This document shows positions 29,354 through 56,094 of a stretch of DNA of 64,000 nt, piece by piece. The stretch lies in the NCBI GenBank assembly GCA_964412235.1, contig CAYPNT010000005.1, positions 5,879 through 69,878 of the forward strand, in the 5' to 3' direction. The position numbers and the translations under genes are program-made. The stretch is from an uncultured Rhodospirillaceae bacterium (GTDB lineage: Bacteria > Pseudomonadota > Alphaproteobacteria > MPNO01 > UBA830). The notes under the pieces are model-generated. The model was not told the origin of the DNA. It made no database searches and was given only the letters and a program-made list of their open reading frames with translations. Within the stretch, counting starts at the first letter, position 1, and each line of letters begins with the position of its first letter.

Positions 29354-29851
29354 ATGTCAGAAAGCCTTATATTTGCCCTTGTCATCGGGTTGACCGTCTA
29401 CCTGTTTATGCGTCGACTACGGGCGATTAAACGTGATAGACAAATACGCGCGGAAAATACGGGGGAGGGGACCTCCCAGGCCGATCCGGGTAGTATGCCG
29501 CGGATTGGGTCACCCGGAACGATTACGCGAGATCAAATCAAGTTATTAAAGGAATATGATTTTGAGCCGTCCCGAATATGGAGCGAGGAGGAAGCTCAAC
29601 TTATATTGGACACTGTGACTTACTTACGCTCAGTGATATATAATTCTACGCAAGAGAAAGATCCGCCTATTGATGTGCAAAATAATATTCTCAAATTTAT
29701 TCTCACTGATGACGCGCTTAGAGACTACGTGTACCAATGGGGAATGAATCGCACACGTGATGACGAAGCCAAAACAACGACTGAACTTCCGCGCGACGAA
29801 TATTACATACGTGTAGAAGCCGCTGTTATGGAGCAGTGGGAGGATTCGTGA
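29354..29851 (+). CDS. Hypothetical membrane-anchored protein
   Basis: 165 aa. It has one N-terminal hydrophobic helix (LIFALVIGLTVYLF), then a charged soluble region. I recognised no family. The stop overlaps possible queA starts. Confidence 0.4.
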   Translation: MSESLIFALVIGLTVYLFMRRLRAIKRDRQIRAENTGEGTSQADPGSMPRIGSPGTITRDQIKLLKEYDFEPSRIWSEEEAQLILDTVTYLRSVIYNSTQEKDPPIDVQNNILKFILTDDALRDYVYQWGMNRTRDDEAKTTTELPRDEYYIRVEAAVMEQWEDS

Positions 29852-29865
29852 GTGGATCTGAAGAA

Positions 29866-33171: not shown

Positions 33172-33372
33172 ATTGGTGACCAAAAGGTTGTTTGGGCAAA
33201 ACCAACTATTCAATGGAAAGACGAAAAAAGTGTTTTAGGCATCTGTGATGACTTCAAAAAATTGGAATAGTTACAACACGCTCGGTACAATACGGTATTA
33301 TTACTAGAAATCTGGGACGGATCGAGTTTTAGACGCAGGTTAGGTGTCTGTGTTGGAGGGACTTATAGCGGC

Positions 33373-35377: not shown

Positions 35378-35907
35378 AAATGACTTTTCCTCGTGGCGTT
35401 TATATAGGTGTACTCGCGATGGTGGTTATTGTAGCGGCCTCTAACGTTTTGGTGCAGTATCCAATAAACGATTGGCTCACTTGGGGTGCAATCACTTATC
35501 CAGCGGCATTTTTGATCACCGATCTGACAAATCGGTCTCTTGGACCCGCCCGCGCTCGACAAGTGGTCTACGCGGGTTTTGCTGTTGCTGTTCTACTTTC
35601 CGTTGGTCTTTCTACTTCACGAATCGCTGTTGCATCTGGAACTGCTTTTTTGATAGCGCAACTAATAGACGTCGGTGTTTTCAATCATTTGCGGGCCAAA
35701 TCTGTTTGGTGGACCGCGCCGTTAGTTTCTTCTTTCGCCGCGTCCGCCGTCGATACGATCCTCTTTTTTTCAATAGCATTTGCCAGTACAGGTCTCCCCT
35801 GGGTAACCTGGGCTGCAGGTGATTTTGGCGCTAAAATGTGCGTAGGGTTAGCGATGCTGGTACCTTTCAGGGCCTTAATGTACAAAACGCGACCACAGGG
35901 AGCATAA
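35374..35907 (+). CDS. yhhQ: Queuosine-precursor transporter (YhhQ/VUT family)
   Basis: GTG 35374 overlaps the arsC stop; ATG 35380 is an alternative. It is hydrophobic, with YPINDWLTWGAITYPAAFLITDL and SSFAASAVDTILFF blocks as in YhhQ. Confidence 0.7.
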   Translation: MKMTFPRGVYIGVLAMVVIVAASNVLVQYPINDWLTWGAITYPAAFLITDLTNRSLGPARARQVVYAGFAVAVLLSVGLSTSRIAVASGTAFLIAQLIDVGVFNHLRAKSVWWTAPLVSSFAASAVDTILFFSIAFASTGLPWVTWAAGDFGAKMCVGLAMLVPFRALMYKTRPQGA

Positions 35908-35909
35908 AC

Positions 35910-38279: not shown

Positions 38280-39091
38280 AATCTGCAAAATTTGAGCACC
38301 GGCAAACGGAATCCCTGAACGAAGCACTCAGTTTGCTCGGTAGTGCGGATGGTGAAACGCGCGTTTTGGGTGGCGGGCAATCCCTAGGTCCAATGATGAA
38401 CTTGCGTCTTGCACAGCCTGATCAGCTGATTGACCTGAGCTCGGTAGATGGACTTGACGAAATATTGGTTGATGGTGACCACCTTCATATTGGTGCGCGT
38501 GTTACGCATGCTCGTATAGAAGATGGAGGGGTCCCAGGTGTAACTGGTGAATATATGAAATTTGTGGCGGCCGGAATTTCATATCGGTCGGTTCGTAATC
38601 GTGGTACAATTGGAGGTTCCGTGGCCCACGCAGATCCCGCGGCGGATTGGCCTTCGGCACTTCTTGCTCTTGGAGGTGACGTGCTCGTCGCCGGACAAGA
38701 CGGTGAGAGACGAGTGTCGTTAGACGGATTTCAAATTGGGCCCTTTGCTACTGGTTTGGGTTACGATGAAATTCTTATTGGGTTTGTTCTTCCCGTTCTT
38801 GGAAGAAACGCGTCTACGGGATACTACAAGGTGAATAGGAAGCCTGGTGAGTTTGCCGATGCAATCGGGGCGGTGGTTGTAGGTGAAAATGCCCGGGTAA
38901 TTTGCGGGGCGACAAAGTCTGCACCATTTAGAGTGTCGGCTGTAGAGGAGAAGCTTTCATCTGGAGGGACGGAATTATCGGTAGGGGAGGCGCGCGAAAT
39001 GATAACTGCACATGATCCCGGGTTTGATGATTATGAATTGCAGATTCACGGTGTAGCGCTAAGTCGAGCCGTGGGGAGGGCCTTCGCATGA
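38276..39091 (+). CDS. Molybdenum hydroxylase FAD-binding medium subunit (CoxM-like)
   Basis: It has ATGA overlaps on both sides. It has VLGGGQSLGPMMNLR and TIGGSVAHADPAAD. Confidence 0.8.
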   Translation: MKSAKFEHRQTESLNEALSLLGSADGETRVLGGGQSLGPMMNLRLAQPDQLIDLSSVDGLDEILVDGDHLHIGARVTHARIEDGGVPGVTGEYMKFVAAGISYRSVRNRGTIGGSVAHADPAADWPSALLALGGDVLVAGQDGERRVSLDGFQIGPFATGLGYDEILIGFVLPVLGRNASTGYYKVNRKPGEFADAIGAVVVGENARVICGATKSAPFRVSAVEEKLSSGGTELSVGEAREMITAHDPGFDDYELQIHGVALSRAVGRAFA

Positions 39092-39555
39092 GTAAACTGT
39101 CTGTAAAGATCAATGGGGAAGACGTAAGCGCGGAGGTGGAGCCCCGCCTTTCGCTTGCAGATTTTATACGCGATCATCGCCGATTAACGGGCACACACTT
39201 GGGCTGTGAACACGGGGTTTGTGGAGCCTGCACCATCTTGATGAACGGGGAACCAATCCGCTCGTGCATAACATTCGCCGTTATCGCCAACGGAACTGAA
39301 ATAACAACCATCGAAGGTTTTGATGACGACGAGCCAATGGAACAGCTTAGGAAAGCTTTTCACGAACACCACGCACTGCAGTGCGGGTATTGCACACCCG
39401 GCATGCTGGTTGCCGCCCGGGATATCGTCATGCGTTTGCCAGAGGCGGATGAGGAACGAGTGCGACTGGAACTGGCTGGAAATCTTTGCCGATGCACCGG
39501 TTATGTTGGAATTGTCAATGCGATTCTAGCGGTCTTAAATAACCGGCTAGCTTAA
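39088..39555 (+). CDS. Molybdenum hydroxylase [2Fe-2S] small subunit (CoxS-like)
   Basis: The cluster motifs are GCEHGVCGACT and QCGYCTPGM ... CRCTGY. Confidence 0.85.
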   Translation: MSKLSVKINGEDVSAEVEPRLSLADFIRDHRRLTGTHLGCEHGVCGACTILMNGEPIRSCITFAVIANGTEITTIEGFDDDEPMEQLRKAFHEHHALQCGYCTPGMLVAARDIVMRLPEADEERVRLELAGNLCRCTGYVGIVNAILAVLNNRLA

Positions 39556-39573
39556 ACAATCAACTCACAGGTA

Positions 39574-41925
39574 ATGTCCGAGGAATCACCTAAGTCTGGA
39601 ATTGGCGCGCGTGTCTTACGGAAGGAAGACGCGCGATTTCTTCATGGCCACGGTCGTTATGTCGCCGACATAAGCCGTCCAAGAATGTTGGAAGCGGCGG
39701 TTCTGCGAAGTCCCATTGCTCACGCTTCTAACCTAAATATCCAAAAACCAGTAGGCCATGAGGGACAAGTGTTTACAGCGCAAGACCTGGCCGCCGGAGG
39801 TGTTCGCCCGATCCATGTTGTTTCTAAATATCCGGGACATCGAGCATCGGATTATCCACACTTAGCGGACGAAAAAATACGATTTGTAGGCGAAGCAGTC
39901 GCGGTATGTCTGGCGGATACGCGGGCTGAAGCGGAGGACCTTGTGGCCCAGACCACTTTAGAATTTGAACCTTTGTCGCCGGTTGTCGATATGCTGTCTG
40001 CGAGTGATTGTGAAGCTGAGCGGGTTCATGAAAACTGGGATGACAACATAATCCTTGAAACGAAAATTTCCGAAAATGCAGAGGCGATGATTGAGGCTGA
40101 TATTTCGGTTAAGCGAACATTTCGGATGAACCGACAGGCTGTCAATCCGCTAGAAGGGGCTGCGGTTATGGCCGAATGGGACGCACGCGAGGATAGGCTT
40201 ATTGTCTACAGTGCATCTCAAATTCCTCATATTTTGAGGAATGCCCTCTGTGAATGTCTCGGTTTAGCTCAGCATAAGGTTCGCGTTATCGCACCCGATG
40301 TTGGGGGTGGTTTTGGATACAAGTGCGTGCTGGTTCCTGAGGAAATATTTATTCCATGGGTAGCGATGCAGGTTAAGCGACCCGTTCGCTGGATACAGGA
40401 TCGGCGTGAACACCTAGTAGCTGCAGCAAATGCTCGAGAACATCATTACGAGGTAACGCTTCATTCCGATTTAGAAGGAAATTTTATAGGAGTGGAAGCC
40501 GATATAACCGTCGATTCCGGCGCCTACTCTGTTTATCCCCATTCCAATATCTTGGAATCAACTATGGCAGGCCGTACATTGCACGGTCCGTATATGTTTG
40601 CTTCCTACAAGGTGCGGGCACGAGCCGTAGCCACAAATAAGCCGCCGATAGTACCCTACCGGGGCGTTGCTCGTCCTGGCATCTGTTTTGCCATGGAGTT
40701 AGCTGTGGATGCTTTAGCCCGGAAACTCTATCGTGAACCAAGTGAGTTAAGAGCACAAAACCTCGTACCCTCCGAGAAAATGCCATATAAAACCATCACA
40801 GGTGGGGAGTTTGATAGCGGGGATTACCGCGAAGCCCTACATCGAGCTGTTTCGTTGATTGATCTTCAGGCACAGCGTACGCGACAACGCGTGGGCGAAT
40901 CCGACGGTCGCCTAATTGGCGTTGGCTTTGGTAGTTATATAGAAATGACAGCATTGCAAACCTCTGCCGCAGCGGGGGCAGGATTGGCGGCAATACCAGG
41001 TTATGAACAATCCCACCTTCGATTAATGCCTGATGGCTCGCTTGAGATCGGCGTTGGTATTCAAAACCACGGACAGGGCATGGAGACCACTCTCGCCCAA
41101 GTTGCCTGTGAAAAATTTGGTCTACAAATCGAAAATGTCGTGGTGCGGCATGGAGATACGGCTACTTCGCCATACTCCACCGGAACATATGCGTCGCGGT
41201 CGATGGTAATGGCAGGGGGCGCGATCGCCCGAACTTGCGATGTTCTTGGCGCCCGGATCAAGCGGATTGGCGCACATTTATTGCAATGTGATCTGACCGA
41301 TACCACTATCAACAACGCGAGCGTTGTTGGTCCAACTGGGGATGTAACAATAGCTGAGATAGCGCGTGTCTGGCATCGAAACCCTGAGGAGTTACCCGAG
41401 GACGTCGATCCGGCGGGGGTAGAGGTTACGTCTGGTTTTCGGCCGTCACCAGACAATAGTCCGTTTTCTTATGCCACTCACGCGGCGGTTGTGGCGGTGG
41501 ACCCGGAGTTGGGTGAGGTCGAAATTCTTGATTATGTAATCTCGGAAGATTGTGGGACCATTGTAAATCCGATGATTGTTGACGGGCAGATTATAGGTGG
41601 AGCACTACAGGGTGTTGGGACTGCACTTTGTGAGGAAGCCCAATATGATGCTGAGGGACAGCCGCTTTCCTCGACTTTTGCTGACTACATAATGCCCGGA
41701 TCAACAGATCTGCCGAAAATCCGCCTTGATCATCTCGTAACGCCGTCTCCTTTAACGGAGTTCGGTGTTAAAGGTCTCGGTGAGGGGGGAGCAATTCCCC
41801 CACCTGCTGCTATCGCAAATGCTATCAACGATGCTATTAAAGTTTACGGTGTTGAGGTGGACGAAACCCCCATTACACCGCGTCGGCTCCGCAAAAAACT
41901 ATCTTCTTCCAACCCGCCGCGATAA
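39574..41925 (+). CDS. Xanthine dehydrogenase-family molybdopterin-binding large subunit, copy 2
   Basis: It is colinear with copy 1, with more than half the residues identical by eye. It has GIGARVLRKEDARFLHGHGRY, APDVGGGFG, PYRGVARPG and KGLGEGG. It begins 18 nt after the small-subunit gene. Confidence 0.8.
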   Translation: MSEESPKSGIGARVLRKEDARFLHGHGRYVADISRPRMLEAAVLRSPIAHASNLNIQKPVGHEGQVFTAQDLAAGGVRPIHVVSKYPGHRASDYPHLADEKIRFVGEAVAVCLADTRAEAEDLVAQTTLEFEPLSPVVDMLSASDCEAERVHENWDDNIILETKISENAEAMIEADISVKRTFRMNRQAVNPLEGAAVMAEWDAREDRLIVYSASQIPHILRNALCECLGLAQHKVRVIAPDVGGGFGYKCVLVPEEIFIPWVAMQVKRPVRWIQDRREHLVAAANAREHHYEVTLHSDLEGNFIGVEADITVDSGAYSVYPHSNILESTMAGRTLHGPYMFASYKVRARAVATNKPPIVPYRGVARPGICFAMELAVDALARKLYREPSELRAQNLVPSEKMPYKTITGGEFDSGDYREALHRAVSLIDLQAQRTRQRVGESDGRLIGVGFGSYIEMTALQTSAAAGAGLAAIPGYEQSHLRLMPDGSLEIGVGIQNHGQGMETTLAQVACEKFGLQIENVVVRHGDTATSPYSTGTYASRSMVMAGGAIARTCDVLGARIKRIGAHLLQCDLTDTTINNASVVGPTGDVTIAEIARVWHRNPEELPEDVDPAGVEVTSGFRPSPDNSPFSYATHAAVVAVDPELGEVEILDYVISEDCGTIVNPMIVDGQIIGGALQGVGTALCEEAQYDAEGQPLSSTFADYIMPGSTDLPKIRLDHLVTPSPLTEFGVKGLGEGGAIPPPAAIANAINDAIKVYGVEVDETPITPRRLRKKLSSSNPPR

Positions 41926-42083
41926 GTTGTCTATCGCAAACGGGCTTGACAAAATAAGATAGGACGAAAAACTCTCTAGTCCACATAGTTTGTCCAGCCC
42001 CGGTTGGGGTTGCGAAAAAAGTGGGAATTGTCACATGATGACTAAGTTATTTTGATTATTTTGTTCTCTGGGAAGAGATAATA

Positions 42084-43430
42084 ATGAGCGGAACACGGAA
42101 AATTAAATTAAATGCATTTATGCGGCCCACTACTATTCACACAGGGAGTTGGCGGTGGCCTGGGGCATTTGCGGATGCAAATTTTAACTTCGAACACATA
42201 AAACTATTTGCTCAACGGCTTGAGCAAGCAAAGTTTGACAGCTTTTTTATGGCCGATCACTTGGCCGTACTCAACATGCCGCCTGAAGCACTTCGGCGAT
42301 CCACGACACCGACGTCCTTTGAACCGTTTACTCTTCTATCAGCGCTCGCTATGTGTACTGCCCGACTCGGTCTTATGGCAACGGGATCGACGACCTATGA
42401 TGAGCCTTTTCACATTGCACGTCGATTTGCATCGCTTGATCATATTAGCGGGGGTCGAGCAGGATGGAACATCGTCACGACCTCTAATCCAGACGCTTCT
42501 AAAAACTTTGGTAAGGAAGTGCATCTTGAACATGCTCAACGTTACAAGCGGGCACGAGAGTTTTACGACGTCGTTACTGGGCTTTGGGACAGTTGGGCTG
42601 AAGATGCATTTATTAGGGACCAAGAAGCTGGTGTCTTCATGGATCCTGAAAAAATGCATGTACTTGATCACCAAGGGGAATATTTTAGCGTCCGCGGTCC
42701 TTTGAATATTGCCCGACCGGTCCAAGGTTGGCCGGTGATTGTGCAAGCGGGAGGATCGGATGCGGGCCGACAGCTTGCTGCAGAGACTGCGGAAGCAGTT
42801 TTTGCCGCCCAGAGCAACCTAGAAGCAGGAAAAGCATTTTATAAAGATGTTAAGGCTCGTATGCGAACCGTTGGGCGTGATCCGGACCACTTAAAAATTA
42901 TGCCGGGTTGCTTGGTGATTGTCGGTGATACGGTGAAAGAAGCTAGGGAAAAGCGAGCAAAGCTAGACAGCCTTGTACACGAAGAAAGTGCGATTGCTTC
43001 TCTCTCCATTACTTTAGGTGTTGATGCTTCAAAGTTCGACCCGGATGGCTTCCTTCCCGATAATTTACCAGAAAGTAATGCTACAAAGTCGGGTCGAGAT
43101 CGCGCTGTCTTGTTAGCGGAGAAAGAGGGCCTTACCATTCGGCAATTGGCCCAAAGACTTGGTGGTTATTCTGGTTTAGCAATGGTAGGGACCCCTATAA
43201 CGATTGCTGATGAGATGGAAGAATGGCTTGAAACCCAGGGAAGCGACGGATTTACCATAATGTTTCCGTTTCTACCCGACGGGCTGAATGATATGGTTGA
43301 TCGGGTCATACCAGAAGTACAGAGGCGCGGTTTGTATCGAACGGAATATGAGGGCACGACTTTACGGGAAAACCTGGGTTTACCACGACCTGCGAACCAG
43401 TACTTTTCTCAAAGTGAAGCTGCTGAGTAG
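42084..43430 (+). CDS. NtaA/SnaA/DszA-family LLM flavin-dependent monooxygenase
   Basis: 448 aa. KLNAFM, the HxGSWR block, FFMADHLA, GRAGWNIVT and IVQAGGSDAG are typical of this family. Confidence 0.75.
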   Translation: MSGTRKIKLNAFMRPTTIHTGSWRWPGAFADANFNFEHIKLFAQRLEQAKFDSFFMADHLAVLNMPPEALRRSTTPTSFEPFTLLSALAMCTARLGLMATGSTTYDEPFHIARRFASLDHISGGRAGWNIVTTSNPDASKNFGKEVHLEHAQRYKRAREFYDVVTGLWDSWAEDAFIRDQEAGVFMDPEKMHVLDHQGEYFSVRGPLNIARPVQGWPVIVQAGGSDAGRQLAAETAEAVFAAQSNLEAGKAFYKDVKARMRTVGRDPDHLKIMPGCLVIVGDTVKEAREKRAKLDSLVHEESAIASLSITLGVDASKFDPDGFLPDNLPESNATKSGRDRAVLLAEKEGLTIRQLAQRLGGYSGLAMVGTPITIADEMEEWLETQGSDGFTIMFPFLPDGLNDMVDRVIPEVQRRGLYRTEYEGTTLRENLGLPRPANQYFSQSEAAE

Positions 43431-44867: not shown

Positions 44868-45569
44868 GTGGGAATGATTAAGGAACTCAATGCCCGTTTA
44901 GATAAAACGGGCCTCTTTGTGCGCGGCGGATTTTATCCTTCTACGGAAGATGAGGTGCCGAGACTACCGGGTGGTCAGAAGACGGAGACAGTAATTCTAA
45001 TTGGAAACGCCGGAGTGGATTTGTGGCGTTGTTTTCAGGAGCAGGCTGTTTTGTCACGTAAACAACCGCTCGATAGCTGGCTAAGGTCTGTGATAGAAGG
45101 TCTGTCCGAATGTGTGGGCGCTCACATGTTGCTGCCTAACGAAGGTCCCCCATTCATACCCATACAAGAGTGGGCTATGAGAGCTGAGCGCGTATATCGT
45201 TCGCCGATAGGCATTCTCATACATCCAGAATATGGTCTTTGGCATGTTTACCGCGCCGCTTTACTTTTCAGTACTAGGCTGGCCTTGCCCACAAGGTCTA
45301 ATAACACTAGTCCTTGTGCGACATGCATGACGCGCCCTTGTCTCTCAGTGTGTCCTGCTGACGCCTTTTCGCCAGATCGCTTTGATGCGCTTTCGTGCGT
45401 GTCACATGTGGAAAGCAACGCCGGAGAAAATTGTCTGAATAATGGCTGTTTAGCGCGCCGTGCGTGCCCTGTCGGAAAAGAGTATCGTTATGAGCCTGAT
45501 CAACAAGCGTTTCATACACATGCAATGGTTCGGGCTGTGAAAAGTGGTTTTGGGGGGATTAATGCCTAG
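44868..45569 (+). CDS. Short QueG/reductive-dehalogenase-superfamily Fe-S protein (annotated ferredoxin type)
   Basis: SPIGILIHPEYGLWHVYRAALLF parallels QueG GKHTNLVSPTFGSWLFLGEIF. It is followed by CATCMTRPCLSVCP and further Cys residues (CLNNGCLARRACP). GTG 44868 or ATG 44874 is the start. Confidence 0.5.
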   Translation: MGMIKELNARLDKTGLFVRGGFYPSTEDEVPRLPGGQKTETVILIGNAGVDLWRCFQEQAVLSRKQPLDSWLRSVIEGLSECVGAHMLLPNEGPPFIPIQEWAMRAERVYRSPIGILIHPEYGLWHVYRAALLFSTRLALPTRSNNTSPCATCMTRPCLSVCPADAFSPDRFDALSCVSHVESNAGENCLNNGCLARRACPVGKEYRYEPDQQAFHTHAMVRAVKSGFGGINA

Positions 45570-46074
45570 TTGGATCGAAGCCGACCCAGGCCATTTCAAC
45601 GGCTTGTTCTATCTCCATCGCGTCGCGCAACTCTTCGTATAGTGTGTCCCCTACCAAACGCCAAATATCTCTCGTTATACGCGCAATTGCTTGAAATGCA
45701 TCTCGCGTATCTATATGGCCCGGGTCAAAGCCATACTCATTTGCCCATTCAACTATTCCGTCGCTGTCCTCATACTCGGAAGCCACAGAGCCCAGGTAGC
45801 GAATGGCATCTTTCAATTCGGGGGGAGCCTCACCATGGAGGCATGTAAAGTAGAACTCCATTTCATGAGTTCGACCCCTAATAATACACTTGTAGTGATC
45901 ACAATCATCTGGGATGTGAGATTGGTGAAGGTCTGGGTTGTCTTTAGACGGCTGATATTCCCACGATATTTTCGCGCGGGATATAAAATCCTCTATGTCC
46001 ATACGGGCGAATTTACCTGTTTTTTCTGATGTTGTTATAAATAAGGTGCGATATAAAACAGTCTTACGTGACAA
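45559..46074 (-). CDS. Hypothetical protein
   Basis: 171 aa (147 aa if it starts at Met 46002). It is acidic, and I recognised no family. Its 3' end overlaps the convergent upstream gene by 11 nt. Confidence 0.35.
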   Translation of the reverse strand: MSRKTVLYRTLFITTSEKTGKFARMDIEDFISRAKISWEYQPSKDNPDLHQSHIPDDCDHYKCIIRGRTHEMEFYFTCLHGEAPPELKDAIRYLGSVASEYEDSDGIVEWANEYGFDPGHIDTRDAFQAIARITRDIWRLVGDTLYEELRDAMEIEQAVEMAWVGFDPTRH

Positions 46075-47038: not shown

Positions 47039-48034
47039 TTAGGATGTAACGCTTTTCGGGTTTAATCTATTTTTGCGAGCCGTCATTTTTTCCGCCATCT
47101 TGGGCCCTCGCCCCGGTGTGGACCATGGGCACACTGCAATGCAGATCCCGCAGCCTTGTGTTTCGTTAAAATATGGAATGCATTTGTCAAAATCGACGTA
47201 CCATTTTTCGATTCCGCGCACCGGATTTTTCTCGCGGTGGATGGCGTCGGGCGGGCACGCGTTGGTGCAGATTTGGCAATTAGTACAAAAATCGTCAGCG
47301 CCGAAGACGTCTGGAACGTTAGTAACTAATGGTATGTCGGTAAGCACTCCAGCGAGTCGTAATGAGGATCCAAATTGGCGGTTTATGAGAGAGCCGTGCT
47401 TTCCAAGTTCGCCCATACCGGCTTCGATAGCAGCGGGGATTAGCAACATCGGCCCGGCCGTTGGCCCGCCATGGGGTCTCGCTGAATAACCGTGTCCTTG
47501 TATGAAATTTGCGATTGCGCGAGCAGCGCGGGTGCCGCGGTTATATTGGGTAATGACCTCAATCGGCGATTCGATCGATGGGGCCTTGACAAGCTCGGTG
47601 TGGTCCATCGCGACGCCGATTATAACAACCCAGGGTTCGGTTATCTCAAAACCTTCGAACACCCATTGCTGGTCCACTCGCGCAACTCCGATAATGTCGC
47701 TTTCATTAGCTAGGCCATGTGCGACAATGCGTGTGACCCAGTTTTCTGGTGTATCCTCAGTAGCTGAATCGGGCTGTTCCGGTCGCTTGGTGCTGCCACG
47801 CCCCCCAAATTTATGCTGAAAACCCTGCAATTCCGGATATTCGTCGTATCGCTTCAGGTAATAGTCCTGGAGGGCTTTATGTGGTAAATCGTCGTCACCG
47901 TAATGCCAGAAGATCGGTGTTGGGGGCCGAATTTTCGTTTCCCCTAGGCCATTGAGCGTATTGCCTGAAACGTCAGGGAACAAAGCAAGCTGTTCAGCGG
48001 GTGGTTGGTATATAGGCTTTTCTGGTTTCGGCAT
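47039..48034 (-). CDS. Reductive-dehalogenase/QueG-like cobalamin-type Fe-S protein, cytoplasmic
   Basis: GMGELGKHGSLINRQFGSSLRLAGVLTD parallels the QueG/RdhA core. It is followed by two cluster motifs, CTNCQICTNACP and C-x10-CGICIAVCPW. It has no Tat or Sec signal. Confidence 0.55.
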   Translation of the reverse strand: MPKPEKPIYQPPAEQLALFPDVSGNTLNGLGETKIRPPTPIFWHYGDDDLPHKALQDYYLKRYDEYPELQGFQHKFGGRGSTKRPEQPDSATEDTPENWVTRIVAHGLANESDIIGVARVDQQWVFEGFEITEPWVVIIGVAMDHTELVKAPSIESPIEVITQYNRGTRAARAIANFIQGHGYSARPHGGPTAGPMLLIPAAIEAGMGELGKHGSLINRQFGSSLRLAGVLTDIPLVTNVPDVFGADDFCTNCQICTNACPPDAIHREKNPVRGIEKWYVDFDKCIPYFNETQGCGICIAVCPWSTPGRGPKMAEKMTARKNRLNPKSVTS

Positions 48035-48045
48035 CGAGGTATCGT

Positions 48046-48813
48046 TCAGGTAGCGACGGGGGTACCGCCACGGTCGGTCAAATAGGTGGCGAGTTCCGCA
48101 CCGGTCATGGGTAAAGAAAACATTTCGTTGCGCATATGCAAGCGCTGCATCGAAACGTCCTGGAGAGCTTTTTTTGCTTTTTCGAAATCACTCTCCGACA
48201 AAATCACGTCCTTTAGGTCGTGAGCAGCGTGGTCAACGTGTCCATCCTCATCGTCTGCGATGATTTTAAAGGCGGCGGCAAGTTTTGTTTCAAAACTGCC
48301 CCCTGTTAGCTTAGCACCCTCGCGGAAGGTCGCCGTCCCGCCACCTTCTGTCAACTCCATTACAGCTCGTACAGCAACGTTTTTAGAATTTACATATTGG
48401 TGTCTCATATTGTTTAGTTTTTCATCTTCTGGAAGCTGTTCAGCATCGCCGTGCTTTAAGGGTCTATCCAGCAAATCCTCCAGAACTTCTGCAAGCACCG
48501 TGTAGTGCATAAATTCTTCTATCATTTGTTCAAGTCGATGGTGAAATGATCGCCGGTCAAGACCGCTATCAACATTTTCAAAGTTATCGACAAGATGAGA
48601 AAATTCCATGTGGAGCCCACAAGAAAAGCCGTCGGTCGGTCCGTATCCAATAACGGGGTTAAGTTCTTTATACACGGCTGCTTTCAAATACCGAATCCAT
48701 TTGTCCTTCGTTGGCTGAGAATCAAAAAACCGACGCGTTAATTCTGCTTCTGTTTCCCAATAAGGCTTCGCTATATCAACCAGCTGCTGTACGTATGGAT
48801 TTTGATCGTTCAT
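48046..48813 (-). CDS. Hypothetical protein with ferritin-like di-iron-type motifs
   Basis: 255 aa. It shows the motif series HMEFSH ... MIEEFMH (ExxH) ... MELTEGG ... DDEDGHVDH (ExxH). It lies 11 nt upstream of the RdhA-like gene on the same strand. Confidence 0.4.
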   Translation of the reverse strand: MNDQNPYVQQLVDIAKPYWETEAELTRRFFDSQPTKDKWIRYLKAAVYKELNPVIGYGPTDGFSCGLHMEFSHLVDNFENVDSGLDRRSFHHRLEQMIEEFMHYTVLAEVLEDLLDRPLKHGDAEQLPEDEKLNNMRHQYVNSKNVAVRAVMELTEGGGTATFREGAKLTGGSFETKLAAAFKIIADDEDGHVDHAAHDLKDVILSESDFEKAKKALQDVSMQRLHMRNEMFSLPMTGAELATYLTDRGGTPVAT

Positions 48814-49039
48814 CTCGTTTCCCTTTTACATCTTTTGGTGGCGCTGTGTCCGCTTTTGTTGTCTGATGTAGGAGTCAACGAGACTCCGGGTTAGTATTTG
48901 CCACCGTTTTCTGCACCGCGCCGATATTATCTTATATAACCATGTTGCCAGATGGCTACATGTCGGTATGTGAATTTAAGTTGAGTTGCAGTTTTTGCAA
49001 GTTAGTCACACGGAGGGCAACTTTACCGGCACACGGTGT

Positions 49040-49053
49040 CTATTTCGAAATAG
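49040..49053. repeat. Perfect 14-bp palindrome CTATTTCGAAATAG (candidate operator)
   Basis: Read directly from the sequence. It lies in the 418-nt divergent intergenic region. A second palindrome, TTGCA-N5-TGCAA, lies at 48986-49000. Confidence 0.3.
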
Positions 49054-49231
49054 GCGGACATCCGTTAGAACCGCAACACTCGGACAGAATAACGGAATCC
49101 ACCAGCGCAAATCCTTTGAACACGGTATGGGCGCAGCCAAGAAGAGGTTTGCCTCTACCGTTGGACTATTTTCACAATTTATCCCATAATTACAAATAGT
49201 TACATGATTAAGAAAAAAGAGGTGACGGTTC

Positions 49232-50119
49232 GTGGAAACTATAAATATTCAGTTTACTTTGTTCTCGGCGTTTTATTCGCCGCTGATTTCAACGTTTTCC
49301 GCCGGATTTCTCCAGGAGGAGGGGCTGAATCCTCAATGGACCGTCTCACCACCCGGCGTGTCAGCGATCGCAGCTCTGGAAGATGGGTCGGCGCATGTTG
49401 TCCAGTCAGCTCTAAGCCAGGGTTTCGCGCCTCTCTCTAAAGGTCAACGTCCCAGCGTTGTCCATTTTGCTCAAATTAATGAAATGGATGGTTTCTTTAT
49501 AAGCGCTCGCGATGCTGATGGCGATTTTAGTTGGGATAAACTGGAAGGCTCTGATGTTGTAACTTTTTCCGGCGGGCAGCCGTTGGCCATGTTCAAATAT
49601 GCTTGTCATAAAGCAGGGATAGATTTTAACAAAATTAATCTTATTCATCCCGGTGGTGCTGCTGATATTGACGAGGCCTTTCGGGCAGGCACTGGTGATT
49701 ATGTGCAGCAACAAGGTCCATTTCCCCAGCAGTTGGAGGCCGACGGGGTGGCGTCGATTGTTGCGCAATCCGGACCATTGATCGGACCCGTTGGTTTTTC
49801 AAGTCTTGCCGCAAGGCCGGATTGGTTGAAAACCGAAATGGCTGAGCGATTTATGCGGGCATACCGTAAGACAAGAATCTACATGAATGAAACGCCCGCC
49901 GCTGAAATAGCGGCGGCTGAAAAACCGTATTTTCCAAATATTGATGAAGCTGTTCTTACTAAATGTATTGCGTCTTACCAGGACCTTGGTACATGGACCC
50001 CACACGTAGAGATTACCCCTTTAGTCTTCGACGTTGTTCTGGACGTATTTGAACACTTTGGGACACTTTCAGAACGGTACAGATGGGAACAGGTGTGTGT
50101 GAACCCACCCGGTAGTTGA
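49232..50119 (+). CDS. NMT1/THI5-like (NitT/TauT substrate-binding-protein fold) protein without signal peptide
   Basis: GTG start with GAGGTG 7 nt upstream. An in-frame TGA 9 nt upstream excludes any N-terminal extension. The protein begins directly with the first beta-strand (INIQFTLFSAFYSPL). Confidence 0.55.
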   Translation: METINIQFTLFSAFYSPLISTFSAGFLQEEGLNPQWTVSPPGVSAIAALEDGSAHVVQSALSQGFAPLSKGQRPSVVHFAQINEMDGFFISARDADGDFSWDKLEGSDVVTFSGGQPLAMFKYACHKAGIDFNKINLIHPGGAADIDEAFRAGTGDYVQQQGPFPQQLEADGVASIVAQSGPLIGPVGFSSLAARPDWLKTEMAERFMRAYRKTRIYMNETPAAEIAAAEKPYFPNIDEAVLTKCIASYQDLGTWTPHVEITPLVFDVVLDVFEHFGTLSERYRWEQVCVNPPGS

Positions 50120-50128
50120 GAGTTGTCA

Positions 50129-51028
50129 ATGGACAACGCGGTGGGGTTGAAGCTGCTTCCACGACAACCGCTATTTGCGGTGGAATTAGGTGGAATAAAT
50201 CTCAGGCAAACGTTTAGCAAGGAGCAGATCGACCAAATTGTCGCCGTTTTACATAAATTTGCGGTTGGTATTGTCAGGCATGACGCGCCACTAACGGATG
50301 ACGAACATATTGCTTTTAGTCTGCTCCTCGGGCCCATCGAGAAAAAGAATATCTTGAAAGTTTCCAATAGTGGAAAAAACCGTCTCGCTCGCTTTGAAAT
50401 TATAGACCAAAGCAATCTTGATGAAACTGGGAATATTTATTCAGACACCGATCGTCGCCTCGCCTTTAAGCGAGCCAACCGGCTTTGGCATACGGATATG
50501 TCGTTTCATTCAAATCGTGCCACATACTCTTTGCTTTCTGCAGTTTTATTGCCGTTTGATGGTGGTCCAAAAACTGAGTTTGCGGATATGCGTGCCGCGT
50601 ATGACGCCCTGCCACAAAAAATGAAGAAAAGTTTAACCGGTCTGGTTTCAGAGCATTCTTACTGGTATTCCCGCGTCGCGGGTGGAGGACCGAAGGCATC
50701 TCTGGAAGAACTTGCCTCGAGGCCACCCGCACAACATTTTCTCGTGCATGAGCGCGGGGGCCGAATGGCTCTGTACTTGGCATCGCATGCATCACAGATC
50801 GTAGGGTGGCCACCCGATGAAAGCCGTGATCTTTTAGATGAACTAATAACTTTTGCGACCCAACAGCAGTTCATCTATGAACATAGTTGGAATACCGGGG
50901 ACGTGGTAATATGGGATAATCTATTAACCATGCACCGAGCGCGACCCTTTGATGATCGGGTACAGGTTCGGGACGTGCGGCGTACAACCTGCAGGGAAAT
51001 TGATCCTTTATTACTTGAAGGAAAGTAA
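50129..51028 (+). CDS. TauD/TfdA-family 2-oxoglutarate-dependent dioxygenase
   Basis: It has LWHTDMSF (HxD), YSLLSAV, WDNLLTMHRA (distal His) and an RxxxR tail. TTG 50123 is an alternative start. Confidence 0.75.
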   Translation: MDNAVGLKLLPRQPLFAVELGGINLRQTFSKEQIDQIVAVLHKFAVGIVRHDAPLTDDEHIAFSLLLGPIEKKNILKVSNSGKNRLARFEIIDQSNLDETGNIYSDTDRRLAFKRANRLWHTDMSFHSNRATYSLLSAVLLPFDGGPKTEFADMRAAYDALPQKMKKSLTGLVSEHSYWYSRVAGGGPKASLEELASRPPAQHFLVHERGGRMALYLASHASQIVGWPPDESRDLLDELITFATQQQFIYEHSWNTGDVVIWDNLLTMHRARPFDDRVQVRDVRRTTCREIDPLLLEGK

Positions 51029-52632
51029 TGGAAAAGAAATCGTTTGATTATGTGATTGTTGGTGGTGGTTCTGCGGGGTGTGTTATGGCAGCCCGCCTTA
51101 GTGAAAATCCTAATAAAACCGTGTGTCTGCTTGAGGCGGGACCTCGAGACCGACACCCTTTTATCCACGTCCCTGCGGCTCTTTTTACCCTTATGAGGCA
51201 TAAGACATTAAATTGGTGCTTTTCAACGGAACCACAAGAAGCAATGGAGGAAGCTCGGGTTTATCTGCCCAGAGGCAAGGTGCTTGGTGGTTCAAGCTCC
51301 ATAAACGGGATGGTGTATATTCGCGGACATCGTAATGACTATGACGATTGGGCTGCGGCCGGAAATTATGGGTGGAGTTGGAACGATGTTTTGCCGTGGT
51401 TTAAGAAATCCGAGTCCAATGAACAATTTGGCGAAGATCCCTTGCATGGTAATTCGGGGCCGTTAAACGTCACGTTTGTAGACAGACCAAACCCACTGCA
51501 CGAAACCTTCTGCGTTGCTGCGGAGGCGCTCCAATACCGACGTAATGATGATTTTAACGGCCAAGAGCAGGAGGGTTTTGGTATTCATCAAGTTACTCAG
51601 AAAAACGGTCGCCGCTGGTCTACTGCCGCGGCGTTTCTAAAACCCGCCCAGAACCGTCCAAACCTCGAAATTATAACAGAAGCGACGGTAACACGGGTTG
51701 TCGTGTCTGAAGGGAAGGCCACCGGTGTAGAAATTCACATTGGTGGTACGTCACGACAGATTGGAGTTAAAGAAGAGGTTATCTTGTCCGCTGGTGCGTT
51801 TATTTCGCCTCAGATATTAATGCTTTCGGGTATTGGAGACGGAGAAATTTTGTCTAAAAAGGGGATAGAGGTTGTTCGCAATATTCCAGACGTCGGGAAG
51901 AATTTGCAAGACCATATTGCGGTGCGGCTCGAATATGATAGCCCAAGTACCACGCCTTATGGACTGTCTTTCCGGGCGTTACCATACCATGCATGGCAAG
52001 CGTCAAAATATTTGTTTGCTCGGCGCGGGTTCTGGACAAGCAATCTTGTGGAAGGGTGCGGTTTCATCAGGAGTGAGAGGAATCTTGATCGACCCGATAT
52101 ACAGATCGTGTTTGTACCCGGTAAGAGAGGACAAAATGGACGATTGATGGGGTGGGGCCACGGTTTTAGTACAAATACAGTATTGCTGCGGCCTAAAAGT
52201 AGAGGTGAAGTTCGCCTTTCTTCAAACAACCCGAGTGATCCTCCGGTTATCGACCCAAGGTTTTTCTCCGAGGATCAAGATCTAAAGGTGTTGACGCGCG
52301 GGTTTAGTCAGGTACGCCGATTGACCGACTCACCATCATTTGACGGGCTGCGCGGTCGTGAAGTAGCGCCGGGTCAACTTTTCGAAGATGAGGCAGAGCT
52401 ATCGGATTGGGTTCGCGAGTCCGCAAGTACAATTTTTCACCCAGTTGGTACCTGTAGGATGGGAAACGATGATGCGTCTGTAGTTGACCCGGAACTTCGT
52501 GTTCGTGGTGTGCGGGGCCTGAGAGTGGTCGATGCTTCTATAATGCCTACGATTGTTGGTGGAAACACGAACGCGCCCGTTATCATGATTGCAGAGAAGG
52601 CTGCCGACATGATCGGTAGTTTGGCATCTTAA
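51028..52632 (+). CDS. GMC-family FAD oxidoreductase (choline dehydrogenase-like)
   Basis: It has FDYVIVGGGSAGCVMAARLSE, GKVLGGSSSINGM and HPVGTCRMG, with a C-terminal NTNAP. The ATG shares one base with the upstream stop. Confidence 0.85.
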   Translation: MEKKSFDYVIVGGGSAGCVMAARLSENPNKTVCLLEAGPRDRHPFIHVPAALFTLMRHKTLNWCFSTEPQEAMEEARVYLPRGKVLGGSSSINGMVYIRGHRNDYDDWAAAGNYGWSWNDVLPWFKKSESNEQFGEDPLHGNSGPLNVTFVDRPNPLHETFCVAAEALQYRRNDDFNGQEQEGFGIHQVTQKNGRRWSTAAAFLKPAQNRPNLEIITEATVTRVVVSEGKATGVEIHIGGTSRQIGVKEEVILSAGAFISPQILMLSGIGDGEILSKKGIEVVRNIPDVGKNLQDHIAVRLEYDSPSTTPYGLSFRALPYHAWQASKYLFARRGFWTSNLVEGCGFIRSERNLDRPDIQIVFVPGKRGQNGRLMGWGHGFSTNTVLLRPKSRGEVRLSSNNPSDPPVIDPRFFSEDQDLKVLTRGFSQVRRLTDSPSFDGLRGREVAPGQLFEDEAELSDWVRESASTIFHPVGTCRMGNDDASVVDPELRVRGVRGLRVVDASIMPTIVGGNTNAPVIMIAEKAADMIGSLAS

Positions 52633-52634
52633 AA

Positions 52635-53609
52635 TCAATATACGTTTAAAACAATTTTTCCAAAATGCTTATTTGCTTTCATGTATTCGACTGCTTCGGC
52701 TACATCGTCTAGGGAAAATTCGCAGTCGACCGGTAGGCTTAGCGCGCCTGCTTCAACATCAGACCATAGGTCAGCTTGCATCGTTCGAACTATAGCGCGT
52801 ACCTCTTCGATGGTTCTCGTTCGAAAAGTGACGCCGACGTAATCAATACGTCGCTGCGCATGGAGGTCGAAATTGAAATCTCCTGAAAAACCGCCTAATC
52901 GCCCCACGTTTACAATGCGACCGAGCACACGGGTGGCCGCCAGGTTGGCGTTGGCCGCATAGCCGGAAATTTGGTCTACGATTAGATCTAAACCTGCCCC
53001 ACCTGTTGCATGAAGAACCTCCTCGACCCAAGTTTCATCGCGAGAGTCCACGGCTAAATCCGCACCAAATTCTCTAAGACGGCCGCGCCGTTCAGAATTT
53101 GTTGAAGAACCTACGACCAACTTCGCGCCGAGCCTCTTGGCTATTTGCAGGCCCATCAGGCCAACGCCAGTACTAGCACCTTGGATCATTACGCTTTCGC
53201 CCCGTTGAAAACGACCAGCGGTCACTATAGCGTTGTGCATTGTTTGTAATGCCACTGGCAGAGTAGACGCCTGTGCCCATGTCATGTTGTTTGCGGGGAT
53301 GGGAACTGTTCTACCCCAGTCGGCCACCGCATATTGTCCCCAGCCTGATGTCCCCGTGCACATAACTCGGTCACCAGGTTTCACATTAGTGACCTCGTTG
53401 CCCATATCTACAACCTCTCCGACATACTCGATCCCTGGGATCGTCCCGGGCCCACCATTCCGGCCATGTGCCATACCGCTTGCTACCATTGAGTCGGCCC
53501 TGTTCATTCCACAGGCATGAACCTTGATTAAAACCTCGTTTGATTTGGGTGTTGGTTCCGCTGTGTCACCCACTTTAATACCATTGTCACCTACCATCGC
53601 CGCTTTCAT
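52635..53609 (-). CDS. Medium-chain dehydrogenase/reductase (NADPH:quinone oxidoreductase-like)
   Basis: 324 aa. It has GESVMIQGASTGVGL (a nucleotide-binding motif) and an N-terminal GMNRAD block. Confidence 0.8.
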   Translation of the reverse strand: MKAAMVGDNGIKVGDTAEPTPKSNEVLIKVHACGMNRADSMVASGMAHGRNGGPGTIPGIEYVGEVVDMGNEVTNVKPGDRVMCTGTSGWGQYAVADWGRTVPIPANNMTWAQASTLPVALQTMHNAIVTAGRFQRGESVMIQGASTGVGLMGLQIAKRLGAKLVVGSSTNSERRGRLREFGADLAVDSRDETWVEEVLHATGGAGLDLIVDQISGYAANANLAATRVLGRIVNVGRLGGFSGDFNFDLHAQRRIDYVGVTFRTRTIEEVRAIVRTMQADLWSDVEAGALSLPVDCEFSLDDVAEAVEYMKANKHFGKIVLNVY

Positions 53610-53727
53610 TTTTGCTCCTCAACAACAAATTTCAGACAATCGTTCCAACTGCGAAGAAAAACTTTCTCGCAGGCCCTTGCCGGACTGTGCCAGCATCCCC
53701 ATCATGACCTTCGGAGAGGGGACGTCA

Positions 53728-55353
53728 ATGAGCGATGCTCAATCGCGCGGTTACAATGATTTACAAGACCACCTTGAAGCACTTGAGGCGGCCGATTTGT
53801 TAATAAAGATCCATGAGGAAATAGATAAAGATTCTGAATTAAGTCCACTCGTACGGTGGCAATTTCGGGGCGGAATACCAGAGGCGGACCGAAAAGCTTT
53901 TCTTTTCGAGAATGTAAGGAGTGGAACCGGAAGAAAATTCGAGATGCCTGTCACTGTTGGAGCGCTTGCTGGGAACGCGGCAATCTATTCGATAGGCATG
54001 GGGGTTCCAGTCGACGAGATAGGAGCGTGCTGGTCTGAGGCGATTTCTAAACCCATTGCACCCATAACTGTTCCCTCCGGGGCTTGCCAGGAAATTGTGT
54101 TCGAAGGTGATGATCTACGCTCAGGAAATGGGCTCGACGCGCTACCTGTTCCCATCTCAACCCCAGGTTACGATTCTGCACCCTATCTTACGGCTACGGC
54201 TTGTATTACCAGTGATCCTGATACGGGGATCCAAAACTTAGGGACCTATCGGGGTGGACTTAAGGCCCCTGATCGGTTGGGTTTAAAACTTTTCATGTCC
54301 CTCGGACAGGGAGGGGCGACGCATTGGCGAAAATATCGCTCTCGCAACCAGGCAATGCCTATAGCTATGGTTGTAGGTTGCCCACCGCCGGTTGCCTACG
54401 TAGGGCCCCAGAAGCTGCCTGAAGACATGGATGAATTGGCGGTTGCCGGCGGAATCGTTGGTTCACCGATTTGTGTCACACGGGCACAAAAATCCGACTT
54501 ACTTGTACCCGCAGAGGCTGAGATCGTAATCGAGGGGCTGCTGGATCCAGAGTACCTGGAGCCTGAGGGTCCCTTTGGTGAAAGCCACGGTCATATAAAT
54601 CTTGAAGAATTTAACTTTATCTTTGATGTGACCGCGGTGACGCGCCGAAAAGACGCCGTGTTTACGTCTATAATTAGTCAGGTAACTCCGTCCGAGTCTT
54701 CTGTTATCAAACGAGTAGCCTATGAGCCATTATTTCTCGCGCATCTTACGGAACGCCTGGGTGTGCGCGGGGTGGTGAAGGTTTTTATGCACGAAGCCCT
54801 AACAAATTTGCGTAAGGTAGTCGTAATCCAGTTCAACAGAGGAACACCACGGACCGAGATCTGGCGGGCATTATATGGGGCCATGTCATTCCAAGAGCCT
54901 GTTGGGAAATACATGATTGCGGTTGATGAAGATATAGATACCAACAATTTAGATGCCGTCTTCTGGGCCATGAGCTACCGTGCAAATTTAGCTCAGGACT
55001 GCGAAATTTTAAAACACCGGCCCTTGGGGCATGGTCCAAGGACCGTCGCTAGAGAGGATGCCACCTTGGCGGTTGATGCAACACTGAAAGCGGATATGGC
55101 ACCTGTTGCTTTACCCAAGAAAGAGTATATGGAGCACGCGCAGAAACTCTGGGAGAAGTTTAACCTACCAGCTCTTCAGCCCGAAGCACCTTGGCACGGC
55201 TACGAACTGGGAGATTGGAGTGAGGAATGGGACCAGATTGCGCGCAAAGCGGCGGCAGGCGACTGGATTGCCAATGGGGAAAGATCTTATCAACGTCGTC
55301 GCAGGGATTTACAACCAAATACAGACGTTCGACGGGCACTTGATGATGATTAG
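53728..55353 (+). CDS. UbiD-family (prFMN-dependent) decarboxylase, paralogue 2
   Basis: ATG 53728 is preceded by GGAGAGGGG. The listed ORF start 53524 is antisense to the neighbouring gene. It is colinear with 9159..10826, including LEPEGPFGESHGH and the extra C-terminal WHGY.LGDWS ... AAGDW region. Confidence 0.8.
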   Translation: MSDAQSRGYNDLQDHLEALEAADLLIKIHEEIDKDSELSPLVRWQFRGGIPEADRKAFLFENVRSGTGRKFEMPVTVGALAGNAAIYSIGMGVPVDEIGACWSEAISKPIAPITVPSGACQEIVFEGDDLRSGNGLDALPVPISTPGYDSAPYLTATACITSDPDTGIQNLGTYRGGLKAPDRLGLKLFMSLGQGGATHWRKYRSRNQAMPIAMVVGCPPPVAYVGPQKLPEDMDELAVAGGIVGSPICVTRAQKSDLLVPAEAEIVIEGLLDPEYLEPEGPFGESHGHINLEEFNFIFDVTAVTRRKDAVFTSIISQVTPSESSVIKRVAYEPLFLAHLTERLGVRGVVKVFMHEALTNLRKVVVIQFNRGTPRTEIWRALYGAMSFQEPVGKYMIAVDEDIDTNNLDAVFWAMSYRANLAQDCEILKHRPLGHGPRTVAREDATLAVDATLKADMAPVALPKKEYMEHAQKLWEKFNLPALQPEAPWHGYELGDWSEEWDQIARKAAAGDWIANGERSYQRRRRDLQPNTDVRRALDDD

Positions 55354-56094
55354 ATGCTTTCCATTGTCCCAGCGGCTTTTTGCACCGTGATCACGCAATA
55401 TACATGGCCGACACCCAACGGACACAAGGTTTCTATCTTGATTGAAGAGTTGGGGCTCGAAAATGAGGTTGTGCCAATAGATATCAATACGGGTGCCCAG
55501 TTCAGTGACGATTTCTTAACAATCAGCCCGAACAATCGTATTCCTGCTATTATGGATCACGAGCCGGCGGATCGAGGTGCCCCAATTTCTGTGTTCGAGA
55601 GCGGCGCCATACTCATGTACCTTGCGGAAAAGGAGGGTAAATTTCTGCCACATCCTCAAAATACGCGAGCGAGAACATGTGTAATTGAGTGGCTGATGTG
55701 GCAAATCGCCGGGCTCGGCCCCATGGCTGGGCAGGCTCATCATTTTCGTCAAGCAATGGGTGGCGAAAGTGTAGCATACGGGATCGAACGTTATTCGAGA
55801 GAAGTCCGCCGGTTGTACAGCGTTATGAATGATCAACTCTCTGAACACGAGTGGCTGGCTGGAAACGAGTATTCTATTGCGGATATTGCTTGTTGGCCTT
55901 GGGTGCGTCCGTCGCGGCGACAGGGTATAGATAAGGCCGAGTTCATCAACCTAAAACGCTGGTTTGAGTCTATGTCGGCTCGACCAGCCGTGAAGAAAGG
56001 AATGGAACTCCTTTCGGAGCATCGGGGCACGAAATCGATGAGCAGCGAGTCCCGCGATATACTCTTTGGCGCCCGTTCACTTGAGCGGAATTAA
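55354..56094 (+). CDS. Nu-class glutathione S-transferase (YfcG-like GSH-dependent disulfide oxidoreductase)
   Basis: It has TPNGHK, ISPNNRIPAI, FESGAILMYLAEK and SIADIACWPW, as in E. coli YfcG from memory. ATG 55354 abuts the UbiD stop. GTG 55387 would give an N-terminus the same length as YfcG. Confidence 0.7.
   Translation: MLSIVPAAFCTVITQYTWPTPNGHKVSILIEELGLENEVVPIDINTGAQFSDDFLTISPNNRIPAIMDHEPADRGAPISVFESGAILMYLAEKEGKFLPHPQNTRARTCVIEWLMWQIAGLGPMAGQAHHFRQAMGGESVAYGIERYSREVRRLYSVMNDQLSEHEWLAGNEYSIADIACWPWVRPSRRQGIDKAEFINLKRWFESMSARPAVKKGMELLSEHRGTKSMSSESRDILFGARSLERN

Follow-up and report, generated by a model that had tools for sequence, protein, structure and literature searches.

Cytosolic RdhA-like proteins of 300-1000 aa are now recognized as a class, one type of which, termed "simplified cytosolic," does without the vestigial domain (PMC12219181). 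Among short RdhAs that have no TAT signal, one from a marine Roseobacter removes bromine from 2,6-dibromophenol, and its relative from Pararhodobacter deiodinates triiodophenol (PMC13101508). The RdhA-type enzymes in the cytosol of aerobic marine bacteria are thought to be important for natural organohalide turnover, yet few have been characterized. The locus described here lies in a 64-kb stretch of DNA (the window) from an uncultured marine alphaproteobacterium of a Rhodospirillaceae-like group of metagenome-assembled genomes (MAGs). In this locus, a gene for a 255-aa putative dimetal (di-iron) carboxylate protein is followed on the same strand by a gene for a 331-aa protein of the RdhA family.

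The 331-aa protein belongs to a known class and the 255-aa protein to an unannotated family, and their pairing is a lineage-restricted, facultative variant. The two genes can tentatively be read as a co-transcribed accessory cassette within a catabolic island, in which a reductive dehalogenation is joined to an oxidation that requires O2, a reading to which a probability of roughly 0.45 is assigned. Because the link between the two is facultative, the main value of the locus lies in providing two well-defined targets for annotation and enzymology rather than a new system.

Relationship of the 331-aa Protein to RdhA and QueG

The initial annotation, which was made from the DNA sequence alone, had attributed an RdhA/QueG core to the 331-aa product, and comparisons of profiles, sequences, and structures all place the protein inside that superfamily. 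It matches the NCBIfam model for reductive dehalogenases (RDH, TIGR02486) at E=1.5e-34, with a score of 120.3 bits that is below the curated cutoff of 160.35. In a phmmer search of PDB sequences, its best matches are to the respiratory dehalogenase PceA (8Q4H at 2e-27 and 4UQU at 2e-24), followed by NpRdhA (5e-21), whereas the match to QueG is far weaker (6e-6). Foldseek comparisons of an AlphaFold2 (AF2) model built from 30 homologues (pLDDT 90.9) give the same order, with PceA at 6e-18, NpRdhA at E~1e-17 (TMq 0.70), and QueG at 1.7e-8; TMq values for the dehalogenases range from 0.60 to 0.71 as compared with 0.45 for QueG. The 331-aa protein is a member of the RdhA superfamily that is nearer to the dehalogenases than to QueG.

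That the protein is not the housekeeping QueG had also been proposed, and this is borne out. Against the QueG equivalog model (TIGR00276), it scores 55 bits (E=4.6e-15) where the cutoff is 200, and the genuine QueG is encoded elsewhere in the window (32047..33171; 437 bits, E=4e-131), within a queA-tgt-queG cluster. Identity with QueG was rejected on these grounds.

The Tyr/Arg pair that typifies dehalogenase active sites can be followed through these alignments. Tyr164 aligns with Tyr246 of PceA and Tyr426 of NpRdhA, and Arg226 with Arg305 of PceA and Lys488 of NpRdhA; in an alignment of 30 homologues, the tyrosine is invariant and the arginine is conserved in at least 90% of the sequences. 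The core motif GELGKHGSLINRQFGSSLRLAGVLTD spans residues 208-233. Both of the [4Fe-4S] motifs named in the initial annotation are present, the first as CTNCQICTNACP at residues 250-261 (Cys250, Cys253, Cys256, and Cys260) and the second as C-x9-CGICIAVCP (Cys285, Cys295, Cys298, and Cys302, with CGICIAVCPW at residues 295-304), although the spacing before the second, originally given as C-x10, is in fact nine residues. All eight of these cysteines are invariant in the 30 homologues. By homology, the protein is predicted to hold one corrinoid and two [4Fe-4S] clusters.

The respiratory enzymes, despite providing the best sequence matches, differ from the 331-aa protein in their cellular setting. 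PceA shares with it the equivalents of Tyr246 and Arg305, the Fe-S motifs, and a corrinoid-binding loop (GELGKHG in the 331-aa family, where the region is conserved, versus GLGEAGRNG), but the 331-aa protein is ~100-170 residues shorter and has no Tat signal, RdhB anchor, or neighboring rdh accessory genes. As had been anticipated from the sequence, neither a Tat (RR) motif nor a transmembrane segment is present, the maximum 19-residue Kyte-Doolittle score being 1.32, and no gene for a small membrane protein adjoins the 331-aa gene. Membership in the respiratory RdhA/RdhB systems was rejected for these reasons, and the protein is cytoplasmic.

The closest likeness is to the cytosolic RdhAs, represented by NpRdhA (PDB 4RAS/6ZY1), by the simplified cytosolic class, and by Ros_A3X954, the short, TAT-less Roseobacter debrominase. 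These proteins and the 331-aa protein have a common fold, two [4Fe-4S] motifs, and a catalytic tyrosine with a basic partner; neither has a Tat signal or an RdhB, and marine alphaproteobacterial hosts are found for both (PMC12219181; PMC13101508). The 331-aa protein lacks both the vestigial N-terminal cobalamin-binding domain of NpRdhA and any C-terminal reductase domain, and so fits the published "simplified cytosolic RdhA" type. It is unlike the cytosolic RdhAs in its score below the RDH threshold, in the invariant motifs of its unique N-terminal region (FPDVSGN..NGLGE and RxPxPxxWH), and in a phenylalanine, Phe289, that is invariant in the family and occupies the position of the substrate-contacting Arg552 of NpRdhA. 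The protein appears from these features to represent a divergent subfamily within the RdhA superfamily. As cytosolic, short, TAT-less RdhAs are already described in the literature, it is best regarded as a new divergent member of a recognized class. The ~330-aa subfamily is abundant, with at least 582 loci in one metagenome scan. Its members seem to be some of the smallest proteins with the RdhA fold, which makes the subfamily a good target for expression and mechanistic studies.

A Putative Dimetal Site in the 255-aa Protein

Far less can be drawn from databases for the partner protein. Neither the 255-aa protein nor its close family has a match in Pfam, NCBIfam, or PDB sequences, where searches with the protein and with the family profile return only chance matches to lysostaphin. 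All close homologues are unnamed proteins from alphaproteobacterial MAGs of marine or sponge-associated origin. When 1.84 billion representatives were searched with a profile, a superfamily of 259 clusters emerged (50% identity, E<=1e-3); 44 of its full-length members, with identities as low as 19%, were aligned, and this alignment forms the basis for the assignments that follow. The protein may be taken to define an unannotated dimetal family of ~259 clusters for which there is no Pfam or NCBIfam model.

In the 44-member alignment, Glu50, Glu100, His103, Glu189, and His192 (255-aa numbering) are invariant, and Glu156 (at least 90%), Asp188, Glu22, and Glu24 are nearly so. Candidate metal ligands are Glu50, Glu100/His103, Glu156, and Glu189/His192, a set of four carboxylates and two histidines in the order E / ExxH / E / ExxH that is the canonical di-iron pattern. 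This is the series the initial annotation had proposed, with one correction. The first carboxylate is not the glutamate of HMEFSH but Glu50, in the sequence YKELNP; His68 and Glu70, which come from HMEFSH, are conserved only within the close family. The strings quoted for the 255-aa protein (HMEFSH, EEFMH, ELTEGG, and EDGH) are all present in the translation, as are GELGKHGSLINRQFGSSLRLAGVLTD, CTNCQICTNACP, and CGICIAVCPW in its neighbor, and the motifs of both proteins are not due to chance: they are invariant or nearly invariant in 30 homologues each and, for the 255-aa protein, across the wider superfamily alignment.

The AF2 model of the 255-aa protein (pLDDT 92.9) is all-helical, with 10 helices, and the candidate ligands fall on those spanning residues 36-51, 87-115, 146-166, and 173-200. 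There is no Tat motif or hydrophobic segment (maximum 19-residue Kyte-Doolittle score 0.73).

Assignment of this helical protein to a fold class is a more difficult matter, since structural and profile comparisons point in different directions. A resemblance to four-helix-bundle di-iron enzymes had been suggested, and at the level of profiles it stands, as the only relatives found are ferritin-like di-iron or Mn/Fe proteins. Foldseek, however, weakly prefers a heme-oxygenase-like fold: its top matches for the model are TenA, CADD, UndA, AetD, and BesC, at weak E values of ~8e-3 to 1e-1 and TMq of 0.45-0.61, and no ferritin-like structure occurs among the top 50 PDB matches. A Foldseek comparison with viral structures was uninformative. 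When a broader profile is compared with the PDB, the best matches, which are not significant, are R2lox (E=0.017) and the aldehyde-deformylating oxygenase (ADO; E=0.05), and in these alignments the tEG...DExxH and EEfxH segments of the superfamily fall on ligand positions. The ferritin-like DUF455 family is matched by 7 of the 44 superfamily members, with a best E of 4.4e-6 that is below the gathering score, and rubrerythrin by two of the 44, again sub-threshold; among twenty remote members scanned singly for DUF455, only P0288 (E=0.008) and P0269 (E=0.028) matched. R2lox, ADO, DUF455, and rubrerythrin have in common with the 255-aa protein an E / ExxH / E / ExxH set on four helices, although every match to these ferritin-like families lies below significance or gathering thresholds.

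The dimetal oxidases with a seven-helix, heme-oxygenase-like fold (HDOs), among them UndA, CADD, AetD, and BesC, are together with TenA the best structural neighbors and are of a size similar to the 255-aa protein. Their ligand set comprises 3 His and 3(4) carboxylates on core helices 1-3, with an HxxxD/ExxH motif on the third core helix (PMC13108848). Membership of the 255-aa protein among the HDOs was rejected on the basis of its ligands, as it has only two invariant histidines, its last motif is ExxH, and His68 is confined to the close family. TenA/thiaminase membership was likewise rejected; the resemblance is one of fold only, a metal-ligand motif replaces the TenA catalytic residues, and neither Pfam TENA_THI-4 nor Haem_oxygenas_2 matches the 255-aa family. 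The protein is perhaps best described as a putative dimetal protein, remotely ferritin-like and of ambiguous fold, whose family is undescribed.

Operon Architecture, Distribution, and Possible Roles of the Pair

The initial annotation had described the two genes as an operon, with both open reading frames (ORFs) on one strand and an 11-nt spacing, and the coordinates, strand, and lengths (Table 1) are as given there. The genes share a strand and a short junction, and no terminator-like site was seen between them in a promoter and terminator scan, whose number of sites was no higher than in shuffled sequence. In orthologous loci, the junction varies from an overlap of stop and start codons up to ~20 nt. 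The overlaps (TGATG or GTGA), which are found in L010-L014 (locus designations of the survey described below), indicate translational coupling of the gene pair in these five basal loci.

If the pair is indeed a catabolic cassette, as is tentatively preferred here, the chemistry might be divided as follows. The 331-aa enzyme, as a minimal, soluble RdhA type, would use Co(I) chemistry to remove halide reductively from an organic substrate. The proton would be supplied by Tyr164, which is paired with the basic Arg226, and the substrate would most plausibly be a phenolic or aromatic organohalide. Since the protein has no reductase domain, electrons would have to come from a separate donor, of the ferredoxin or flavodoxin type. 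The 255-aa helical-bundle protein, with its predicted 4-carboxylate/2-His dimetal site, would most likely be an oxidase or oxygenase that activates O2 and works on the same pathway intermediate or a neighboring one. Members of either family are mostly found without the other, and for this reason the proteins probably act in succession in a pathway rather than as subunits of an obligate complex. A functional link between them, if real, would hint at the class of substrate and set B12-dependent reduction in an aerobic context.

The distribution of the pair was examined in a scan of one genome per species, which returned 38 loci of the 255-aa family; for the high-GC loci, gene neighborhoods were read from tblastn and representative sequences. 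The RdhA-like gene directly follows the 255-aa gene in eight of these loci (L001, L002, L008, and L010-L014), and a metagenomic locus, L054, brings the number outside the window to nine. On a neighbor-joining tree, which is unbootstrapped and to be read with caution, the pair-carrying loci are basal in the near clade, suggesting one acquisition followed by at least three or four losses. One assembly (L039, 9222..9989) encodes an RdhA-like protein identical to that of the window but has its 255-aa gene split into two calls, of 220 and 34 aa, a variant that reflects either a premature stop or the assembly.

A second architecture occurs in L045 (3372..5990) and L061 (98..2698), where a gene of the 255-aa superfamily is divergent from a TauE-family gene, which in turn is followed by a homologue of the 331-aa gene. 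The superfamily member in these loci has 267-269 aa, is 25-28% identical to the 255-aa protein, and keeps all of the ligand motifs, and the RdhA-like homologue is 65-67% identical to the 331-aa protein. A 336-aa gene that follows a superfamily member in L135 was also considered as a candidate and is not RdhA-like.

Several observations weigh against reading the pair as a dehalogenating and oxidizing cassette, among them the number of loci in which only one gene is found. In 7 of 15 close-relative loci (75-77% identity), the 331-aa gene is missing while the remaining gene order is kept, including the NMT1-like gene, the TauD paralogue, the alpha/beta hydrolase, the genes for the 171-aa and the QueG-like 233-aa proteins, and the aminotransferase. 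In a more distant clade of 47-56% identity, it is absent within 8 kb in all 23 loci, and the 255-aa gene sits among housekeeping genes (rlmN, argG, gatA/B). The reverse comparison is similar: the 255-aa gene is directly upstream in one (L054) of 80 metagenomic loci that carry a member of the 331-aa family (47-83% identity), and it occurs in none of four further contexts, in which the neighbors are MetH and a DEAD helicase; methylmalonyl-CoA mutase and MeaB; 2-oxoglutarate (2OG) oxygenases; and MttB with a corrinoid protein. The supposition of a conserved two-gene module has to be given up in view of these counts and of the repeated losses among close relatives. The pairing is confined to one narrow lineage, in which it is facultative and often lost, and it is therefore better viewed as an optional catabolic add-on than as an obligate two-component system.

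Other points on the same side concern chemistry and regulation. The sub-cutoff RDH score, together with the failure of a Pfam scan to report the Dehalogenase domain, marks the 331-aa protein as belonging to a divergent family, so that its substrate chemistry could differ. The replacement of NpRdhA Arg552 by Phe289 and the ambiguous fold of the 255-aa protein are two further points. An Rfam scan of the whole window found no family at the gathering score, and hence no cobalamin riboswitch, and neither a halogenase nor a halide transporter was found in the window.

Several of these observations would be accommodated if adjacency implied no functional coupling at all, a mobile or accessory RdhA-like gene having landed once behind the di-iron gene in the clade ancestor, where it is read through from that gene's promoter, with the two products serving separate substrates or pathways. 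Such a history is in keeping with the overwhelming separation of the two families and with repeated loss of the RdhA-like gene from loci that retain the 255-aa gene and the surrounding order. The third-position GC content (GC3) of the RdhA-like gene, 0.53 as compared with 0.42-0.47 in adjoining genes, gives a weak hint of separate origin, and a divergent NMT1/THI5-like gene is the most constant neighbor of the 255-aa gene, at 12 of 15 near-clade loci versus 8 of 15 for the RdhA-like gene. Adjacency without coupling is nonetheless somewhat unlikely, as it does not sit well with the translational coupling indicated by codon overlaps in the five basal loci, with the survival of the pair in loci whose flanking genes differ, or with the independent second juxtaposition in L045 and L061, which is improbable by chance for a family as rare as 259 clusters in 1.84 billion representatives. 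These same three features lend some favor to a functional link.

In another reading, the 331-aa protein is not a dehalogenase. As a B12-dependent reductase acting on a non-halide leaving group (an epoxide, as in QueG, a hydroxyl, or an N-oxide), it could reverse or complete a di-iron oxygenation, the pair then forming an oxidise-then-reduce module. The divergence of the family under the RDH cutoff, its unique invariant N-terminal region, the substitution of Phe for Arg552, the putative oxygenase encoded beside it, and the occurrence of some 331-aa homologues next to 2OG-Fe(II) oxygenases are all compatible with this proposal, but conservation of the dehalogenase-typical Tyr/Arg dyad and the much weaker similarity to QueG in both sequence (E=6e-6 versus 2e-27) and structure (TMq 0.45 versus 0.60-0.71) make it improbable. 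Comparable caution applies to the more ambitious idea that oxidation by the dimetal protein and reduction by the RdhA-type enzyme are coupled in one unit, with the 255-aa protein founding a new functional family of ferritin- or heme-oxygenase-like dimetal enzymes. In one version of this idea, the oxygenase would hydroxylate an aryl halide at the ortho position and so turn it into a dehalogenase substrate; in another, the B12 enzyme would reductively undo or complete an epoxidation or oxygenation. Such a unit, which is judged quite unlikely, would if real be the first partnership between a dimetal enzyme that activates O2 and a corrinoid reductase. Least probable of the alternatives, and very unlikely, is a protective or maturation role for the 255-aa dimetal protein, which, in the manner of rubrerythrin or ferritin, might scavenge O2 or peroxide or handle iron and thereby shield or load an O2-sensitive corrinoid/Fe-S enzyme in an aerobic host. 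Its sub-threshold similarity to rubrerythrin and DUF455, the loss of activity of a related short Roseobacter RdhA exposed to oxygen (PMC13101508), and the housekeeping neighbors in the distant clade, which suggest a general role, can be cited for it. Against it stand the lack of a rubredoxin-like or other electron-entry domain in the 255-aa protein, the fact that most members of the 331-aa family manage without this partner, and the oxidative catabolic operons in which other superfamily members are found. In one of these, a superfamily gene lies between genes for an MFS transporter and a luciferase-like monooxygenase followed by an amidohydrolase; in another, P450 and Rieske/VanA genes adjoin the superfamily gene, and in a third it is followed by an SDR.

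Gene Neighborhood in the Window

The genes on either side of the pair are those of a catabolic island, which includes EamA exporters, a GST, a UbiD-family decarboxylase, a Zn-dependent dehydrogenase, a GMC oxidoreductase, and TauD, along with the NMT1/THI5-like protein, an alpha/beta hydrolase, a class-V aminotransferase, an NtaA/DmoA flavin mononucleotide (FMN) monooxygenase, and two molybdenum hydroxylases of the XDH/CODH type. Positions of the pair and of other features of the window are collected in Table 1.

Table 1. Coordinates of the gene pair and of other features in the window
Feature	Position	Strand	Basis or description
255-aa gene	48046..48813	minus	ORF list; putative dimetal (di-iron) carboxylate protein
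331-aa gene	47039..48034	minus	ORF list; cytoplasmic protein of the RdhA family
Intergenic spacer between the 255-aa and 331-aa genes	48035..48045	minus	11 nt
TauD-family paralogue, 3' remnant	48939..49007 (within intergenic 48814..49231)	minus	tblastn/blastn of L001 against the window; ~0.8 kb deleted
NMT1/THI5/SsuA-like 295-aa protein	49232..50119	plus	no signal peptide
171-aa (or 147-aa) protein	45559..46074	minus	no Pfam/NCBIfam match; kept in near-clade gene-order block
233-aa RdhA/QueG-superfamily-like protein	44868..45569	plus	TIGR00276 E=4.6e-6 over residues 114-181
Catabolic island genes	35838..43430 and 51028..56094		two XDH/CODH large subunits with FAD and 2Fe-2S subunits, NtaA/DmoA, GMC, PIG3-type quinone oxidoreductase, UbiD, glutathione (GSH)-dependent oxidoreductase
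queA-tgt-queG-dusA, queuosine/tRNA-modification cluster	29836..34383	plus	four equivalog-level matches

The region directly upstream of the 255-aa gene differs between the window and close relatives. In L001-L009 and L015, this position is taken by an intact, co-oriented TauD paralogue, and L054 has part of one; in view of the deletion that has left only a 3' remnant in the window, the cassette may have been deprived of the upstream gene and promoter setting that it had ancestrally.

A further gene of possible relevance, the third in the window that resembles the RdhA/QueG superfamily, encodes the 233-aa protein, in which two Cys motifs, CATCMTRPCLSVCP and C..NNGCLARRACP, are unusual. Pfam gives no match for it, and its best match in a PDB sequence search is not significant (E=0.19). 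Close relatives retain this gene at its place in the conserved gene order, including those that have lost the 331-aa gene, and a 54%-identical copy lies ~1 kb from a 331-aa homologue in L044 and L045. The 233-aa protein could be an electron-transfer or corrinoid-handling partner.

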